Positions 1 through 9,928 of a stretch of DNA of 10,542 nt are shown here, in pieces. Each line of letters opens with the position of its first letter. Position 1 is the stretch's first letter. The stretch is from a virus, in UHGV virus genome UHGV-0077157, one strand, 5' to 3'. A program made the position numbers and the translations under genes. The notes beneath the pieces were generated by a model. The model made no database searches. It was not told where the DNA came from and worked only from the letters and a program-made list of their open reading frames with translations.

Positions 1-88
1 ATTATGAGTCGCTCGCTCTCACCACTGAGCTAAAGGGCCGGGAGCAGAATAATAATGGTGCGTAATTAATTCTGCAATCTCATCCGTT

Positions 89-3762: not shown

Positions 3763-4020
3763 TCACGCAGTAAACTCCTTCACCAGTATTTCAAACTGGC
3801 TTACCTGGCCTTCCAGTTCCGCCACGCAATCCACCAGCTCATCCACCGCCTTTTGTGTGCGGTGTTTTGCCAGCAGCAGATCACGCAGCGCCGGAGTAAG
3901 CTGCTTGCGGAGCGTATCCTTTGCCACGCTCGTTTTTTCCATCTGTTCAGCACAACGAAGCATCTCCTGCGCCTGCCGACGAAGTTGTTCCGGTGAAACA
4001 GTGGTTGTTCTGTTATTCAA
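3763..4020 (-). CDS. Hypothetical small coiled-coil protein (85 aa)
   Basis: ORF with TTG start overlapping the helicase stop (TTGA) and a GGAG 8 nt upstream. Charged, helix-prone sequence (QLRRQAQEMLRCAEQMEKT...ELVDCVAELEGQVSQFEILVKEF). No homolog recognised. Confidence 0.45.
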   Translation of the reverse strand: MNNRTTTVSPEQLRRQAQEMLRCAEQMEKTSVAKDTLRKQLTPALRDLLLAKHRTQKAVDELVDCVAELEGQVSQFEILVKEFTA

Positions 4021-5408
4021 AATAAACGCTCCGTTTTACTGCCCGACATGCGGTTATTGCTGTATCTGCGCGGATTGCCCGGCGTCATGGGTGTGGAAAG
4101 AACCCGGGCACTCTCCTGGTCCACTGGCAGAAAATGTCCGTTATGAAAACGCCGGTAAATGGTCCCGAGCGTGCCATTACGCTGTTTCGTGATGTTGATT
4201 TCTGCTATGCCTCCGGCCTGCGTTTCCGGGTTGTATACCTCATCCCTGTAAAGCATCAGAATGATGTCGGCATCCGCCTCGATTTCCCCGGAGTTTTTCA
4301 GGTCCGAGTTCATGGGGCGTTTATTGGGTCTGGATTCCACGCCGCGGGAGAGCTGGCTCAGAGCAATCAGCGGAAAACCGCCGGATTTTGCCAGGCTTTT
4401 AAGTCCCTTTGAGATTTCCCCCACCGCAAGGTCGTGACGCCCCGTGCTGCGGGTTTTAATCAGGCCGAGGTAATCGACCACCACCAGCGCCGTTTCCGGG
4501 TGTTTGATCCGGTGGTGCTTCGTGGTTGCACATATCTCATCAATGGTCAGGTTTGCCTGGTCCACCATCCAGATATTACGCCCCGTCATTCGTCCCACAC
4601 CCTGTGAGAAGCGTGCCCAGTCTTCGTCTTCAAAACGGGCAACAGACTTAAGACGGGATACCGGCATTCCACCGGCAGCAGACACCATACGTTCACCAAT
4701 CTGGATGTTCGCCATCTCCATGGTGAACAGAAGCACGCCATGCCCCTGCTCAGTCACCTTGTCGATGATGTCCAGCGCCAGTTCGGTTTTCCCCATCGAA
4801 GGACGGGCAGCAATGAATACCAGGTCGCCAGGCTCCATCCCCCCTGTTTTTGCGTCCAGTTCATCAATACCGGTCATCAGCGTTCTGGATTTCTCCAGTC
4901 CCTGATTCCGGCATTCAACACGGTCGACCACTTCCGGAAGTACATCATCAATGTGAACAGGCTGAATGACGCCCTTTTCCATCGACAATGAGGCCATCAT
5001 GTTTTGAGCATCCTTCAGAGCATCTTCAGCTGCTTCACAGGTATGCGCATCACGTAATTTCTGCAGCGCCTCATTCAGTGTTTTTTCTGCATCACGCAAT
5101 GCGGCATTGCGCCGCAGCGCTGCAACATAGTGCTCCAGTGACGACTTCACCCAGGTTTTGCGCCCGGTATCAGTAATCACCGGGGCAAGTTCCGGCATCT
5201 CATTGCACAGCAGCACAGGATCAATCGCACCTGAAACACGGGCCTGTCTGCAGATGCCTGTGTAGATATCCCGATACGCTCGTACAGAAAAAACGTCCGC
5301 CGGTAGTGTGGCCAGAATATCCATCACTTCATGATCTGCCCCTCGCAGAAAAAACGCGCCAATGACAGCGCCTTCCAGGTCATCGTTACGCCAGACAGGA
5401 GAAGTCAT
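4017..5408 (-). CDS. Replicative DNA helicase, DnaB family
   Basis: 463 aa. Walker A ARPSMGKTELALD, Walker B VVVDYLGLI, and DnaB signature stretches ALSQLSRGVESRPNKRP and DLKNSGEIEADADIILMLYRDEVY. AGAGGTG RBS; ATG overlaps the upstream stop (ATGA). Confidence 0.9.
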   Translation of the reverse strand: MTSPVWRNDDLEGAVIGAFFLRGADHEVMDILATLPADVFSVRAYRDIYTGICRQARVSGAIDPVLLCNEMPELAPVITDTGRKTWVKSSLEHYVAALRRNAALRDAEKTLNEALQKLRDAHTCEAAEDALKDAQNMMASLSMEKGVIQPVHIDDVLPEVVDRVECRNQGLEKSRTLMTGIDELDAKTGGMEPGDLVFIAARPSMGKTELALDIIDKVTEQGHGVLLFTMEMANIQIGERMVSAAGGMPVSRLKSVARFEDEDWARFSQGVGRMTGRNIWMVDQANLTIDEICATTKHHRIKHPETALVVVDYLGLIKTRSTGRHDLAVGEISKGLKSLAKSGGFPLIALSQLSRGVESRPNKRPMNSDLKNSGEIEADADIILMLYRDEVYNPETQAGGIAEINITKQRNGTLGTIYRRFHNGHFLPVDQESARVLSTPMTPGNPRRYSNNRMSGSKTERLF

Positions 5409-6283
5409 GCAGCCACACCTCTGATACGAGAACGATAGCTGGGCCAGTTAAACGACAACCAGTTGCGTCCCCCGTCTGTGATCCTGTCGGCAATGCGGGG
5501 GCTGATGAATGCCCACAACTCTTCCGGTGAAAGGTTGCTGATCAGGATGGTGGGCAGGATGCTTTCGTACCGGGCATTGATAATTTCCTGCAAAATAGCC
5601 ATTTCAGCCGCGCTGCCAAACTGAACGCCGACTTCGTCGATGATCAGCAAATCCATTGACGCATAATGCTCAATAACTTCATCCGCTGTTTTTTCGCTGT
5701 CATTTCGCCAGCAGTTTTTCACAGCACGGGTAAGGCGCATCACATCAGTAATCTCCACACTAGCCAGATGGTTACGGATGATGTGTTTTGCCATAGCCAC
5801 AGCCAGATGATTTTTTCCAGTACCACAACTGCCTGTCAGAACAAGACTGGTACCGTTAGCCAGAACATCCTCCCAGCTCTCCGCATAGCGGCGGCAGGCA
5901 GCAAGATTTCTGGCTGCATCAGAGTTAATCTCCTGATAGTTTTCAAACTCACAGTCGCGAAACCTACAGGCAACACCAGCATTCTCAATCAGCACATCAG
6001 CTTTCATTGCAACCAGAGTCCGATGTGTCACATCCATTTCATCCACCAGACACTCCGGACAGCGGGAAATTTTTGAGGCAGCGCCCCCCTGCCGATCATC
6101 CCACACCAGTATATGCGTACGATATTTACCGTGTTTTTCGCAGCATCCAACTCCTTCAGATTCCCGACAGGCACGGTAAGGCCATGGCTTTTCGCCATTC
6201 TGAGCAAATGCAATCTCTGCCCGTAACTCATCCATTCGCGCCTGTAGTCTTGTTTGTTTCTCACGTTGGTCAATCGTCATCAT
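5405..6283 (-). CDS. DnaC/IstB-like AAA+ helicase loader with N-terminal Cys-rich (zinc-ribbon-like) region
   Basis: Walker A LTGSCGTGKNHLAVAMA, Walker B DLLIIDEVG. N-terminal CCEKHGKYRTH...CPEC cysteine cluster. Start placed at ATG 6283 (GAGGTG 6 nt upstream); the ORF track extends to GTG 6292. Confidence 0.85.
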   Translation of the reverse strand: MMTIDQREKQTRLQARMDELRAEIAFAQNGEKPWPYRACRESEGVGCCEKHGKYRTHILVWDDRQGGAASKISRCPECLVDEMDVTHRTLVAMKADVLIENAGVACRFRDCEFENYQEINSDAARNLAACRRYAESWEDVLANGTSLVLTGSCGTGKNHLAVAMAKHIIRNHLASVEITDVMRLTRAVKNCWRNDSEKTADEVIEHYASMDLLIIDEVGVQFGSAAEMAILQEIINARYESILPTILISNLSPEELWAFISPRIADRITDGGRNWLSFNWPSYRSRIRGVAA

Positions 6284-6293
6284 CGCTGTCACC

Positions 6294-7118
6294 TCAGAAT
6301 GTCAATTTGTTACTGGATTTACCGTATTTGTCAGACATGGCTCCCAGGCCAGCCAGGACATCGACCTGTCGCTGTCGCCCACCTCCGTGAGCGGCTGGCT
6401 GTTGCCAGTAATCTTCGAAGTGACGATCGGGTCCAAAGAACGTCGCAGCCTGCTTCACGAACTGTGTGCCGGTATTTCCTGTAGCGCGTACCCAGGCGGC
6501 ATACCGCTTCACGCCATCAAGCATGGTCTCCGGTTTTATTCCCTCCCTGATACGGGCTTTCCAGGCTTTGAAGGCTGCTGACTTGGAATTGCCACCAGCA
6601 CGTTTGGGATATTCCTGCCAGGCCTGTTCAAATTCCGGTGAATATTCCTGTCGGGCGGAACGCGCTGGTGCAGACGCGTCAGCGGATGCGCCAATAGTTG
6701 ATTCATTGACTGGTTCTTTGACTGGTTCAAAAGAGTGACTGGTTCTGGGTGAATCTCCTGCACCACCCCCTGGTGCAACTCCTGCACCACCTGGTGAATT
6801 TGCTGCACTAGGTAGTGAATTATTTGCACTACCACCTGGTGAATCTTTTGCACCATCAAGACGAAGAAGATAAATATTGCTCGAGTTCCCTTTTTCACCT
6901 TTCCGGGAAACTTTTTTTACCAGTCCGGATTCACAAAGAGCCGTAATATGATTCATCACAGAACGTTTGCTAATCTCGCACTGATCAGCAATATGCTGAT
7001 AGCTGGGCCAGCACTCGCCCTGATCGCTGGCATTATCAGCCAGCTTAATCAGAACCAGTTTTCGCAACGGATTTCCTACGCGAATTTTCATCGCTTTCAC
7101 CATCAGCTCCATGCTCAT
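6294..7118 (-). CDS. Replication initiation protein (lambda O-like / YdaU-like) with N-terminal wHTH and a repeat-encoded linker
   Basis: 274 aa. N-terminal winged-helix segment typical of phage initiators (LRKLVLIKLADNASDQGECWPSYQHIADQCEISKRSVMNHITALCESGLVKK). Central low-complexity linker (SPGGSANNSLPSAANSPGGAGVAPGGGAGDSP) encoded by the iteron repeats. Sits directly upstream of the loader and helicase. Confidence 0.75.
   Translation of the reverse strand: MSMELMVKAMKIRVGNPLRKLVLIKLADNASDQGECWPSYQHIADQCEISKRSVMNHITALCESGLVKKVSRKGEKGNSSNIYLLRLDGAKDSPGGSANNSLPSAANSPGGAGVAPGGGAGDSPRTSHSFEPVKEPVNESTIGASADASAPARSARQEYSPEFEQAWQEYPKRAGGNSKSAAFKAWKARIREGIKPETMLDGVKRYAAWVRATGNTGTQFVKQAATFFGPDRHFEDYWQQPAAHGGGRQRQVDVLAGLGAMSDKYGKSSNKLTF
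6745..6858. repeat. Five tandem ~22-23 bp direct repeats (iteron-like; candidate phage replication origin) inside the initiator gene
   Basis: Plus-strand copies at 6745-6767, 6768-6790, 6791-6812, 6813-6836, 6837-6858 with core CTGGTGAAT-n-CTGCACCAC. Preceded by three GACTGGTTC 9-mers (6708-6716, 6720-6728, 6737-6745) and followed by a moderately AT-rich stretch (6859-6885). Analogous to ori-lambda iterons inside the O gene. Confidence 0.5.
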
Positions 7119-7342
7119 AGAACACCTCCCTGGCGTTTAAACATTTTTCCGGACTGAAACGCCACCAGCGGGTAACTCAGGGTATAAGTACGCCCCTGCA
7201 CCTGGCAGACAACCTTCTGACTTTCTGCATTGACCAGACAAACCCGCAGAACGTGACCGTTGCTGGTGGCAAACCACTGCCCCACGCGGGGGGGGCAACA
7301 GTTGTATCGGTGATACAGGGAATTAACGACGCGGCGAATCAT
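7115..7342 (-). CDS. Hypothetical small Cys-containing protein (75 aa)
   Basis: Start at ATG 7342 with GGAGGTG RBS; ATGA overlap with the upstream gene and ATGA overlap with the initiator start, so embedded in the coupled operon. No homolog recognised. Confidence 0.5.
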   Translation of the reverse strand: MIRRVVNSLYHRYNCCPPRVGQWFATSNGHVLRVCLVNAESQKVVCQVQGRTYTLSYPLVAFQSGKMFKRQGGVL

Positions 7343-7701
7343 GGGCGCACCTCCCATTGATTACGGCAGAAAGCGGTAAGATTCAGGCTGTTCTCTGCCT
7401 CATGGAATGCTTCAATGCAGCTCTCGTAGTACCGCATTGTGCGCAGACTTAACCCAAGCTGAAGCATCATCAGGCCATCAAGGGTGATGTAATAACCACG
7501 CAGGGAATCGCCATACACGTGGTAAGTACCCGGTATGAAATTACGGGAGAAGAATTCACGCGAGCAGTTCAGATACTCGATTTTGTCGACGATATTCTGA
7601 TGCATGCGCTTGAAGTGGCAGGCAACATGCAGGGAGAAAATAACGGCCTTGCCGTTGACAACTTCAATTTTCAGGTATGGGGAAGTTGGGACTGTAGCCA
7701 T
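7339..7701 (-). CDS. Hypothetical protein (120 aa); the same frame stays open up to 8001 (220 aa)
   Basis: Perfect AAGGAGG 8 nt upstream of ATG 7701 and an ATGA overlap at the 3' end. The in-frame upstream 100 codons have coding-like codon usage in part but the ATG at 8001 has no RBS and overlaps the proposed antisense-RNA promoter. Confidence 0.5.
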   Translation of the reverse strand: MATVPTSPYLKIEVVNGKAVIFSLHVACHFKRMHQNIVDKIEYLNCSREFFSRNFIPGTYHVYGDSLRGYYITLDGLMMLQLGLSLRTMRYYESCIEAFHEAENSLNLTAFCRNQWEVRP

Positions 7702-7988
7702 GATGGCAGCCTCCTTGAGCAGTGAAAAACTTCCACCACCGGAGCTGCGAAACTCATGGGTGGTGAACTGAACAGGGTTCGCAGTACCGGCGCTCAAGGA
7801 AACCGGCGAGCCTTTCGGCTCCCCTGCCCAGCCCACCATAATTCTGGCGTGCGCGAGCATGAACGATAAAAAAGACGCTGGCGCGTCGTATATCGCCTCG
7901 AGCAATTCCGGGCTGCGACCCCCGGCACCCGCTTTATAAGGTGCGGAGACAGTGTAACGTCCCGAAATTGCAGAATCAATATTTGGTC

Positions 7989-8111
7989 TTGAAATGATCA
8001 TATAGCTGCTGATATCTTTAGAACTGTTCTTGGATGTTTCGGAACCGTTTTATGCGAAACAGCTCCCCGTTATTGATGTTGAGTGAGCCGGGTTACTCCC
8101 GGCTTTTTTTT
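7989..8111 (+). ncRNA. Candidate oop-like small antisense RNA (promoter + about 85-nt transcript + terminator)
   Basis: Plus-strand TTGAAA (7989-7994), 18-bp spacer, TATCTT (8013-8018), then the terminator at 8083-8111. Predicted transcript about 85 nt, convergent with the minus-strand early operon, as for lambda oop next to cII. Confidence 0.3.
8083..8111 (+). terminator. Strong plus-strand rho-independent terminator abutting the Rha gene 3' end
   Basis: GAGCCGGG-TTACT-CCCGGC hairpin followed by 8 consecutive T (8104-8111). In the minus orientation the hairpin is followed by TCACTCAAC, so it is unidirectional. Confidence 0.6.
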
Positions 8112-8818
8112 CACCGCTGCCAACCAATAACCTGAAATAACCCCATTTTCGGGTGATACCAGCGAGTCCCTCGCGGTTCTGCTTCCTCCATAACCCGATA
8201 AAAAGCAGCCATAAACGGTTCCACAGCAACAATTGCGCGACGTGACAACAATCCGTCCGGCGTCATGAACTCATGGGTGTCTGTAGGAATCTGATAGGCG
8301 TTCACCAGATTGCGGCATTTATCATCTGACAAACCGGTTTTTGCTTTCAGTTGGCGATATCCGGCATAGCCCTCACGAATAGTGCCCTTTTTAATTTGCT
8401 CGACTGTTTCAGCAACGTGGCTGACTTTTTCTTCCACCTGAGTGATCCGTTTCTGCTGACGAACTGCTTCAAGAGCCATCGCGGCAACCATTTCGATTTC
8501 GCTCATTGGCTTACGGATCTGTTCTTCCAGTTCGCGCCAGCGATCTACCAGGCGAGCAGTGAATTCAGGACAGAGCTGTGCGACGACAATGATGCTGTCG
8601 CGCTTACCTTGTTCTCCTTCAAACAGGTAATGCTCATATTGAACTTTAAAACCTAAGTTATTGATTCTTTCGGAAACCTCAATTTGAGGAGACCGGACAA
8701 CGCCACCTTTGGCTAATGTTTCAATAGTGCGTTTCACATTGTCATGACGTTTACCCACCAGCTCTGCAATTTCAACGCTGGTCATGGATACTTTGCCGTT
8801 AAAAATTGCGATGTTCAT
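8111..8818 (-). CDS. Rha-family phage regulatory protein (antirepressor-like)
   Basis: 235 aa. N-terminal MTSVEIAELVGKRHDNVKRTIETL matches the Rha domain signature (s.eIAeL.GKrH.nVlRdI). Occupies the cII-like position after Cro; ATGA overlap with the Cro-like stop. Confidence 0.8.
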   Translation of the reverse strand: MNIAIFNGKVSMTSVEIAELVGKRHDNVKRTIETLAKGGVVRSPQIEVSERINNLGFKVQYEHYLFEGEQGKRDSIIVVAQLCPEFTARLVDRWRELEEQIRKPMSEIEMVAAMALEAVRQQKRITQVEEKVSHVAETVEQIKKGTIREGYAGYRQLKAKTGLSDDKCRNLVNAYQIPTDTHEFMTPDGLLSRRAIVAVEPFMAAFYRVMEEAEPRGTRWYHPKMGLFQVIGWQR

Positions 8819-9105
8819 TGTTTATCTCCTGCGTGTATTCCATCCGCTCTGTGTGGTGAACTTGGATTTAGGCTTTTGCGTAACAAGTTAGGAATTCCAT
8901 CTTCAGGGTGAGGATAAAGATCTGGCCTTAAGCCATGAGGCGTAACCTTCCATGCAACTACTTCACATACTCGTAAAACGAAACGAGCAGGAATTGTGCT
9001 TTTTGAAAACCACTGATTCACCGCTTGCGGCGTCACACCAAGATTTCGCGCTATGGCATTTTGCGCAATTAATGCACGAAGTTTGTCGTAATCATTTCCT
9101 TCCAT
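8815..9105 (-). CDS. Cro-like (YdaS-type) HTH transcriptional regulator
   Basis: 96-aa ORF transcribed divergently from the CI-like repressor. HTH segment AIARNLGVTPQAVNQW. First gene of the minus-strand operon. Confidence 0.7.
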   Translation of the reverse strand: MEGNDYDKLRALIAQNAIARNLGVTPQAVNQWFSKSTIPARFVLRVCEVVAWKVTPHGLRPDLYPHPEDGIPNLLRKSLNPSSPHRADGIHAGDKQ

Positions 9106-9238
9106 AACAAAGCACCAATATTAACTTTATAAATCAAGAATACATCAAGTTTAAATTAACATGCAAGTTACAAAAGGATCGAATACACTAAAATCAAGTA
9201 AAGATTTATCCTTGTAAAGAAACCCACAGGATTTGGTC
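9106..9238. promoter_or_regulatory. Divergent immunity promoter/operator region (PR/PRM-like) between the Cro-like and cI-like genes
   Basis: 133-bp AT-rich intergenic region between divergent repressor genes. Contains three direct copies of A(A/C)ATCAAG (9131-9138, 9142-9149, 9201-9208) and TAATAT/TATAAA-like hexamers on the minus strand. Individual promoters could not be placed unambiguously. Confidence 0.5.
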
Positions 9239-9928
9239 ATGAAGAACGTCAAAAACACGGAAAATCGAATAGCCGCGATGCTGAAAGCAAAAGGATGGAC
9301 TCAGGCTCAACTGGCCCGCAAGTTAGGTGTGAGTGCGCAATCAGTGCAGTACTGGACAACAGGAAAAACATTTCCACGGAGTGATAAGCTCGCGCATTTA
9401 TCAGAGATTAGCGGTTATCCACAATCCTGGTTCTTAGGTGAAGACTCCTCACCAACCTTTTCCTCGCAAGAGAAACACCAGACAAGAACAGATAGCGTCG
9501 TGTTTAATGTCCTTGATGTTGAGTTTAGTTGCGGTGATGGAACTCATGTCCGTGGTGACTTGATAGATGTAGTGCGCTCAATAGAACTTGATCCTGAATA
9601 TGCCCGACGTCTTGTTGGAAATCGGGCATTCAAAAATATAGAAATAGGTAACGCCAGAGGAGACAGTATGGCTCCCACAATCTCACCTGGCGACCTTCTT
9701 TTTCTTGATAAGACAGTAACTTATTTTGATGGCGATGGTATTTATGCATTTTGTTTTGATGGAGAATGCTACGTGAAAAGGCTTCAAAAAATTGGAAGCA
9801 AAATCATGGTGTTATCTGATAACCCCAATTATCAACCATGGAGCATCGAAAAAGAGGGGTTAGCTCTGCTTTATATCCAGTCTAAAGTGATCTCATCAGT
9901 ACCATTCAACATAAACAGATTTGGTTAG
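9239..9928 (+). CDS. CI-like prophage repressor (N-terminal HTH + C-terminal S24 LexA-like peptidase domain)
   Basis: N-terminal HTH (WTQAQLARKLGVSAQSVQYW) and C-terminal autocleavage domain with GDSMAPTISPGDLLFLD (catalytic Ser) and a downstream Lys (CYVKRL). Start taken as ATG 9239 (AGGA 7 nt upstream); the ORF track begins at TTG 9233. Confidence 0.9.
   Translation: MKNVKNTENRIAAMLKAKGWTQAQLARKLGVSAQSVQYWTTGKTFPRSDKLAHLSEISGYPQSWFLGEDSSPTFSSQEKHQTRTDSVVFNVLDVEFSCGDGTHVRGDLIDVVRSIELDPEYARRLVGNRAFKNIEIGNARGDSMAPTISPGDLLFLDKTVTYFDGDGIYAFCFDGECYVKRLQKIGSKIMVLSDNPNYQPWSIEKEGLALLYIQSKVISSVPFNINRFG

Follow-up and report, generated by a model that had tools for sequence, protein, structure and literature searches.

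Short RNAs transcribed against phage operons have been described in several systems, of which lambda and P22 provide the closest counterparts of the element reported here. In lambda, the 77-nt oop RNA, which opposes the PR operon, runs from position 38675 to 38599 and overlaps 55 nt of cII, whose end lies at 38653, and it lowers its target mRNA in an RNase III-dependent way; transcriptomic data have led to the acceptance of positional equivalents, such as OOP-BTP1, in other lambdoid prophages (PMC7067206). In P22, the sar RNA of the arc-sar-ant unit in immI, whose size (68/69 nt) and function are described in PMC12197685, is complementary to the RBS of the antirepressor gene, and in the P22 sequence X01916 the arc stop lies at 531 and the ant ATG at 600. 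A different kind of RNA control is represented by P1/P7 c4, P4 CI and the IsrK/STnc1160 module of Gifsy-1, RNAs whose base-pairing with the same transcript regulates antirepressor or replication genes (PMC4825925). The Gifsy-1 study presents IsrK as a structural homologue of P4 seqA and the RNA downstream of it as corresponding to P4 CI / P1 c4, the two together controlling an antirepressor via pairing inside one shared transcript. Moreover, EHEC prophages carry short, terminator-ended sRNA cassettes, AgvB, AsxR and HnrS, which converge on a phage operon and combine conserved with variable segments (PMC4104026; PMC13502914).

The DNA analysed here, called the window in its full length of 10,542 nucleotides, is part of a lambdoid E. 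coli prophage, with positions 7700-8250 being 100% identical to strain 100117, 99.5% to O111:H- 11128 and ~91% to several Stx2a-converting phages. Next to the gene of a Rha-family regulator lies a self-contained non-coding unit of ~125 bp (~7985-8111), hereafter the cassette (Table 1), from which a plus-strand RNA of ~85 nt is probably made, judging from its sequence signals. Such an RNA is likely, since only plus-strand transcription reaching this point would account for the conservation of a one-way terminator in non-coding DNA, and since the sole conserved promoter-like element upstream of it is part of that same mobile unit.

By its predicted layout the cassette would resemble P22 sar more closely than lambda oop. 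As with oop, a short RNA (~85 against 77 nt) would be directed against the PR operon and closed by an intrinsic terminator, ending at the 3' end of the gene after cro and starting from a promoter in the 5' end of the next unit. In sequence the two are unlike, as blastn-short of 7980-8120 against lambda 38.5-38.7 kb returned a 7-nt chance match, and the flanking genes differ: the upstream gene is cII in lambda and Rha here, while downstream lies O in lambda and the isrK/C4/antirepressor unit here, so that isrK, C4, a Rha-domain gene and an 80-aa ORF precede the O-like gene. The likeness to oop proposed in an earlier note on this DNA thus holds for position and size and fails for sequence; nor does it extend to an overlap with the coding 3' end of Rha, of which the stop codon alone is shared, against the 55 nt of oop.

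As with sar, the candidate fills the gap from the stop of an upstream regulator to the next unit of an antirepressor operon, its promoter lying inside the downstream unit, its direction being against the operon and its end falling at the upstream stop, all in a neighbourhood of antirepressor control. The differences are that sequence similarity is limited to 7-nt chance matches, that the candidate terminator is far stronger (T8), that the location is the early right operon rather than a separate immI, and that sar is complementary to the antirepressor RBS, whereas the likely start here (ATG 7701) is 325 nt off. In the window's allele the predicted RNA covers no RBS because the next unit is the isrK sRNA gene with its own promoter; cover of both RBS and start codon, as by sar, is found only in an allele of the phiP27 type, by prediction.

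With P1/P7 c4, P4 CI and Gifsy-1 IsrK/STnc1160 the relation is one of adjacency: a homologous module immediately adjoins the candidate, but the candidate is on the opposite strand, matches neither family and has no significant complementarity to them. A term search of the Gifsy-1 paper (PMC4825925) found no divergent RNA beside isrK. AgvB, AsxR and HnrS differ in that they lie in the late region downstream of PR', are 51-66 nt long, have unrelated sequences and show a variable 5' end with a conserved 3' part, whereas the middle is variable in the candidate (PMC4104026; PMC13502914). Identity with the EcOnc, AgvB, AsxR, HnrS or StxS sRNAs was considered and rejected, these being at different loci and the EHEC four in the late region. 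The candidate belongs to neither the oop nor the sar family and is predicted to work like that kind of phage regulator, and the recurrence, with unrelated sequences, of a small RNA opposed to the gene after cro or arc suggests a design principle rather than descent.

Table 1. Features of the cassette and of its surroundings, by position in the window; A, B and C are allele classes of the cassette
Feature	Position	Strand	Remarks
-35 hexamer TTGAAA	7989-7994	+	unchanged in classes A, B, C; TTGGAA at one locus
Extended -10 (TG, A, TATCTT)	TG 8010-8011; TATCTT 8013-8018	+	classes B/C TGgTATTTT, same 18-nt spacing
Predicted small RNA, ~85-86 nt	~8026-8111	+	start predicted
Conserved 5' block GTTCTTGGAT	8026-8035	+	near-invariant over aligned alleles; flanks diverge
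Variable central hairpin GGAAC.GTTTT / GAAAC.GCTCC	8041-8066	+	hairpin in all three classes
Terminator stem arms GAGCCGGG / CCCGGCTT	8085-8092 / 8098-8105	+	loop TTACT; T8 8104-8111
Predicted isrK promoter TTGATT-17-TACACT	7979-7974; 7956-7951	minus	read from sequence
isrK-like sRNA (P4 seqA-like)	7944-7868	minus	Rfam RF01394, 56.4 bits (gathering 50); own terminator 7887-7868
C4 antisense RNA (P1 c4 / P4 CI type)	7843-7756	minus	Rfam RF01695, 84.4 bits (gathering 45)
'ash family protein' ORF (PGAP)	7339-8001	minus	Pfam Phage_ASH (PF10554), residues 16-108
O-like replication gene	6294-7118	minus	
Rha-family regulator, 235 aa	8111-8818	minus	Pfam PF09669 Phage_pRha; PGAP 'Rha family transcriptional regulator'
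cro-like gene	8815-9105	minus	upstream of Rha in early operon
CI-like repressor	9233-9928	+	

Terminator, promoter and predicted RNA

A strong plus-strand terminator had been placed exactly at the Rha stop codon, in surroundings where all neighbouring genes point the other way, and both observations are borne out. Every gene from 4017 to 9105 is on the minus strand, and the hairpin (8085-8105), with a stem of 8 bp including six GC pairs and a loop of 5 nt, has an energy of -14.5 kcal/mol, against -9.6 for the cI terminator and -7.1 for the isrK terminator. The T8 tract runs into the Rha stop, its last base (8111) coinciding with the T of the reverse-complemented codon (TCA, 8111-8113). The segment 8085-8111 has the form of an intrinsic terminator, a GC-rich hairpin followed at once by a U-tract, and is the top-ranked terminator-like match of the whole window; counting both strands, the window has a single hairpin of -12 kcal/mol or lower with at least seven T behind it, and such a site arose in 2 of 200 dinucleotide shuffles. 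Seen from the minus strand, A8 precedes the hairpin and CACUCAACAUC follows it, with no U-tract, so that the terminator is one-way, for the plus strand only. It is kept with T6-T8 in all cassette alleles, in non-coding DNA, and in the variant GAGCTGGG of locus L087 the stem pair is retained as U.G, on the plus strand only.

The promoter-like site noted before as TTGAAA-18-TATCTT is present, with a TG extension in addition (TTGAAA-18-TGaTATCTT, 7989-8018); it scores 9 of 12 matches plus the extended -10, and the hairpin begins 67 nt downstream. Since sites of this class are not enriched in the window (10 found, 11.3 in shuffles), the candidate promoter is weak evidence on its own. Transcription is predicted to start at about G8026, and the resulting RNA of ~85-86 nt would be near the 77 nt of lambda oop, as had been estimated. 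It would have a long U-tail and a U-rich stretch ahead of the terminator, and it overlaps no neighbouring coding sequence except the Rha stop codon. Its 5' block differs by one base in one class B variant, L064, which has GTTCTTGGCT.

The candidate RNA is annotated in no record, and its sequence occurs in no searchable paper. A cmscan of the whole window against Rfam 15 (E<=1) gave no plus-strand match at 7985-8115, and no small protein was found in the cassette on either strand, the open frames not being conserved between alleles. The complement of the 5' block is absent elsewhere in the window, its sole copy being the antisense site; long-duplex scans for targets within the window returned nothing distinctive, and pairing of the predicted RNA with isrK, C4 and the antirepressor leader stayed within shuffle noise. 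No LexA box was seen by eye in the cassette region.

Some short matches link the cassette to cI: 7981-7993 (ATTTGGTCTTGAA) in the -35 region shares 12 of 13 bases with 9231-9243 (ATTTGGTCATGAA) at the cI start, and the 12-mer TTGATGTTGAGT of the candidate RNA (8073-8084) is repeated exactly and on the same strand within cI (9513-9524). Both are probably due to chance, and operators or repeats common to the cassette and the cI-cro region were rejected, since only short matches, probably fortuitous, were found. A GATC (Dam) site at 7996-7999 lies in the promoter spacer within the palindrome ATGATCAT, in class A only; classes B and C have ACATTCAT.

The isrK/C4 module and the operon

In the direction of the minus strand, the order is cro-like gene, Rha, a gap of 110 nt, the 'ash' ORF, an 80-aa ORF and the O-like, DnaC-like and DnaB-like genes. 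The unit downstream of Rha is, by its Rfam matches and the Gifsy-1 parallel, an isrK/C4 (P1 immI / P4 CI-type) RNA-controlled antirepressor module. The earlier note had made the RNA antisense to the junction between Rha and replication and to the 5' region of the downstream ORF. What follows Rha is instead isrK (7944-7868), C4 (7843-7756) and then a Rha-domain antirepressor-like gene, and the predicted start at ~8026 is 25 nt beyond the annotated ATG 8001, which is itself doubtful, so neither description can be kept.

The Rfam isrK model begins at 7944, the seventh base past the isrK -10, and this is precisely the start predicted from that promoter. The isrK promoter is 97-100% conserved, including in phages without the cassette, and stands back to back with the candidate promoter, their -35 boxes being 9 bp and their starts ~82 bp apart. 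The pair of isrK and C4 is present in every related locus examined, isrK also in loci L003-L007.

Both RNA genes lie inside the 5' third of the 'ash' ORF, and residues 16-108, to which the Phage_ASH match extends, are the translation of the isrK/C4 RNA genes. The annotated ATG 8001 falls within the plus-strand promoter spacer and lacks a Shine-Dalgarno sequence; by eye, all four codon differences between class A and class B alter the amino acid. A strong Shine-Dalgarno sequence, AAGGAGG (7716-7710), precedes an in-frame ATG at 7701, the 120-aa product of which retains the pRha domain, and the C4 loop UCCUUGAGC is complementary to 7720-7712, overlapping that Shine-Dalgarno sequence. The annotated start is doubtful and ATG 7701 is likely the real one, as these sequence features suggest. 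The 'ash' ORF is made largely of two RNA genes, by which the local annotation is corrected, and the long ORF may be no more than conserved RNA genes read as protein, which perhaps applies to much of the Pfam family as well.

Within 4017-9928 the prophage joins a CI/Cro protein switch with an isrK-C4 RNA module placed in its early right operon. The module is located here upstream of antirepressor-like and replication genes, while that of Gifsy-1 is in the late region (PMC4825925). Early transcripts must cross the isrK terminator (7887-7868) before they reach the replication genes.

Alleles and distribution of the cassette

Alleles recovered via the Rha protein and a DNA pattern comprise ~25 distinct cassette sequences in three classes, the window belonging to class A. 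Class A cassettes are 98.4-100% identical, even where the 5' half of Rha or C4 is only 82-90% identical, a near-identity that may reflect recent spread and not selection. Between classes B/C and class A, identity is 100% at the Rha 3' end and the isrK promoter, 60-68% at 8000-8050 and 36-48% at 8050-8075. Against this divergence, the 14 promoter positions contain one difference, compared with a background of 14/44 (32%; P=0.035), with the -35 box, the TG, five of six -10 bases and the 18-nt spacing all kept.

A discriminator of 7 nt followed by G is common to the three classes; in class B the start G opens a 6-nt insertion, which lengthens the RNA by 6 nt at its 5' end. All classes likewise keep GTTGAG(T/C) ahead of the terminator, and the ~50 bases between the 5' block and the terminator are 36-68% identical between classes. 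Within this stretch the central hairpin is formed from different sequences, GGC..ACTTC/GAAGT.GCC in class B and GGC-CTGC/GCAG..GCC in class C. RNAalifold on a MAFFT alignment misplaces the variable hairpin, and its covariation score was not used; it points to a possible helix between the 5' end and the stretch ahead of the terminator.

Of 5426 complete E. coli genomes, 204 contain the segment 7983-8116 with 95-100% identity (class A), as do 9 phage records; classes B and C occur in 33 further genomes of the same set. Every copy is flanked by Rha on one side and by the isrK/'ash' unit on the other, and none bears an annotation. Stx2a phages are among the carriers, as are E. coli O111:H- 11128 (NC_013364) and O103:H2 12009 (NC_013353) with class A and SE11 (NC_011415) with class B. 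In O157:H7 genomes of the E. coli set it is rare, and O157:H7 Sakai is for that reason probably without it. Among Rha homologues in other genera, 0 of 14 loci had the cassette alongside (genome contig scan), and a metagenome scan with the loose pattern GTTCTTGG..GTTGAGYGAGC returned nearly all chance matches and one true class B copy.

Homology to other phages breaks exactly at the isrK -35, a mosaic junction that bounds the cassette. In Stx1-type phages a minus-strand DUF4222 gene replaces it, and no plus-strand terminator is found at the Rha stop; the terminator therefore travels with its own promoter. In phiP27-type phages a BRO-N gene takes the place of the cassette and a different plus-strand terminator is present at the Rha stop (GGCCGG..CCGGCC followed by TTTCTTATTT, -13.1 kcal/mol), together with TTGATT-18-TGaTATTGT inside BRO-N, which has 8 of 12 matches and is below the scanner threshold. 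In the phage types compared, then, a plus-strand terminator occurs only where a plus-strand promoter-like site accompanies it. The proposal that the locus is a self-contained plus-strand promoter-terminator unit convergent with Rha is sustained by its alleles and by its swapping as a unit. The phiP27-type arrangement (L007 1080-1200, and L009) has a predicted RNA of ~58 nt that starts beside the GTG and is antisense to the BRO-N SD and GTG; as far as prediction goes, it would come nearer to P22 sar than the window's allele does.

Possible function and alternative explanations

We tentatively regard ~7985-8111 as an unannotated plus-strand sRNA gene that may act as antisense on early-operon read-through RNA. 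According to this proposal, a sigma-70 promoter of the extended -10 kind would fire, transcription starting near G8026 and stopping at the U-tract on the Rha stop codon, and the RNA would be transcribed back to back with the isrK promoter, converging on the cro-Rha early operon. It would pair with the 85-nt spacer in transcripts that read from Rha into the isrK-C4-antirepressor-replication genes, much as oop pairs with cII mRNA and sar with the arc-ant spacer, leading to cleavage of the duplex or loss of transcript stability (RNase III type), with convergent transcription adding interference. The antirepressor and replication genes could thus be kept out of reach of leaky early transcription as long as this does not exceed the level of the RNA, which would set a threshold.

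Antisense action is what we infer from the arrangement, being the best-supported mechanism because lambda oop and P22 sar share this layout. Against it stand the modest 9/12 match of the candidate promoter and its suboptimal 18-nt spacer. The effect of pairing is also hard to see, because the predicted RNA covers neither an RBS nor a coding sequence. The conserved blocks, moreover, could be protein-binding sites that regulate the isrK promoter.

The near-invariant 5' block favours another explanation, since a purely cis-acting RNA needs no conserved 5' end. The RNA would then be real and act in trans, as a moron-type, probably Hfq-dependent sRNA with its 5' end GUUCUUGGAU serving as the seed for host or phage mRNAs, and its place opposite the early operon would be incidental. 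A first block of 10 nt that is near-invariant and a following 50 nt with 36-68% identity form the usual pattern of seed plus scaffold; the long U-tail and the U-rich stretch ahead of the terminator, the exchange of the cassette with protein morons at the same site, and the EHEC prophage cassettes with their conserved and variable parts (PMC4104026; HnrS, PMC13502914) are consistent with it. However, no target is found within the window, where the seed complement is not repeated and no significant pairing occurs with isrK, C4 or the leader, and the 5' block may be kept by pre-terminator pairing or as the initial transcribed sequence. Action in trans, though the main rival, is rather unlikely.

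An RNA made without a function of its own is also unlikely, and somewhat more so. The promoter would in that case be a partner of the isrK promoter (supercoiling coupling, polymerase competition) or spurious, and the terminator would insulate Rha, cro and cI, to which the close spacing of the two promoters (-35 boxes 9 bp apart, starts ~82 bp apart), the position of the terminator exactly on the gene border and the freedom of the transcript's middle to diverge are well suited. Such a reading does not fit a central hairpin kept via three different sequences or a near-invariant 5' block; the isrK promoter does without this partner in DUF4222-type phages, and an insulator leaves discrete, internally uniform alleles unexplained.

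It is improbable that the functional molecule is the minus-strand early mRNA, in which two hairpins after Rha would be a 3' stabiliser, a processing site or a put-like element, the cis element serving transcripts that enter the isrK terminator and the plus-strand signals being incidental. The window's allele does form a perfect 10-bp minus-strand hairpin (with two G.U pairs), its fold having a z-score of -3.79 on the minus against -2.18 on the plus strand, and both class A polymorphisms, G>A at 8041 and 8044, preserve pairing on the minus strand only. In classes B and C, by contrast, the minus folds are weaker in all alleles, the plus fold being more stable by 3-14 kcal/mol in every one (at the extreme, -29.6 against -15.9 kcal/mol). 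Four wobble changes are tolerated on the plus strand only and two, those of class A, on the minus strand only; the former are ACTTC/GAGGT (L064, L065, L087), the terminator variant GAGCTGGG (L087) and two differences between A and B/C in the possible helix of the 5' end with the pre-terminator stretch. The changes in L064, L065 and L087 break minus-strand pairs, the minus strand offers no role for the T6-T8 tract conserved in non-coding DNA, and there is no minus-strand Rfam match at the cassette. The T-tract and the promoter argue for the plus strand, with which the predicted thermodynamics agree for B/C and on which they are neutral for A; the central hairpin is not regarded as informative on strand.

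That a hairpin, a T-run and a promoter-like string have come together by chance in intergenic DNA rich in A and T is very improbable, for although promoter-like sites are as frequent in shuffles, the terminator was reached in 2/200 of them and both promoter and terminator are kept across diverged alleles.

If the antisense proposal is carried further, the RNA might be the third member of an isrK/C4/antisense switch that gates read-through into the RNA immunity module, with the alleles as specificity types, a suggestion that is speculative and decidedly unlikely as it stands. If such a three-RNA switch were true, a module gated from the CI-controlled early operon would control the antirepressor and replication genes. 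Specificity types would have a hypervariable middle and invariant flanks, and a resident prophage would silence only phages of the same allele, whether incoming or co-resident, Stx2a phages included.

Expression by itself would place an unannotated regulatory RNA in the region of lysis-lysogeny control of ~4% of complete E. coli genomes, with Stx2a-converting phages and O111, O103 and ST131 strains among the carriers. As it directly adjoins the antirepressor switch, the RNA could influence spontaneous induction and hence the release of Shiga toxin.

Elsewhere in the window, a minus-strand unit of ~100 nt (1608-1713) follows a Q-like antiterminator (1799-2353, DUF1133/Phage_antitermQ) and terminates in AACCCGC-TTTAT-GCGGGTT plus T7. 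It has sub-threshold Rfam matches to AgrB (27 bits) and isrK (22 bits) and is probably a short PR'-tR' transcript (lambda 6S / StxS-like). The 5' half of a tRNA (1-39, minus strand; Rfam tRNA, 25 bits, E=0.12) is cut by the window edge and lies downstream of a DNA methylase gene (89-1138), and the order Q, PR', methylase and tRNA is that of a typical Stx-phage late region.
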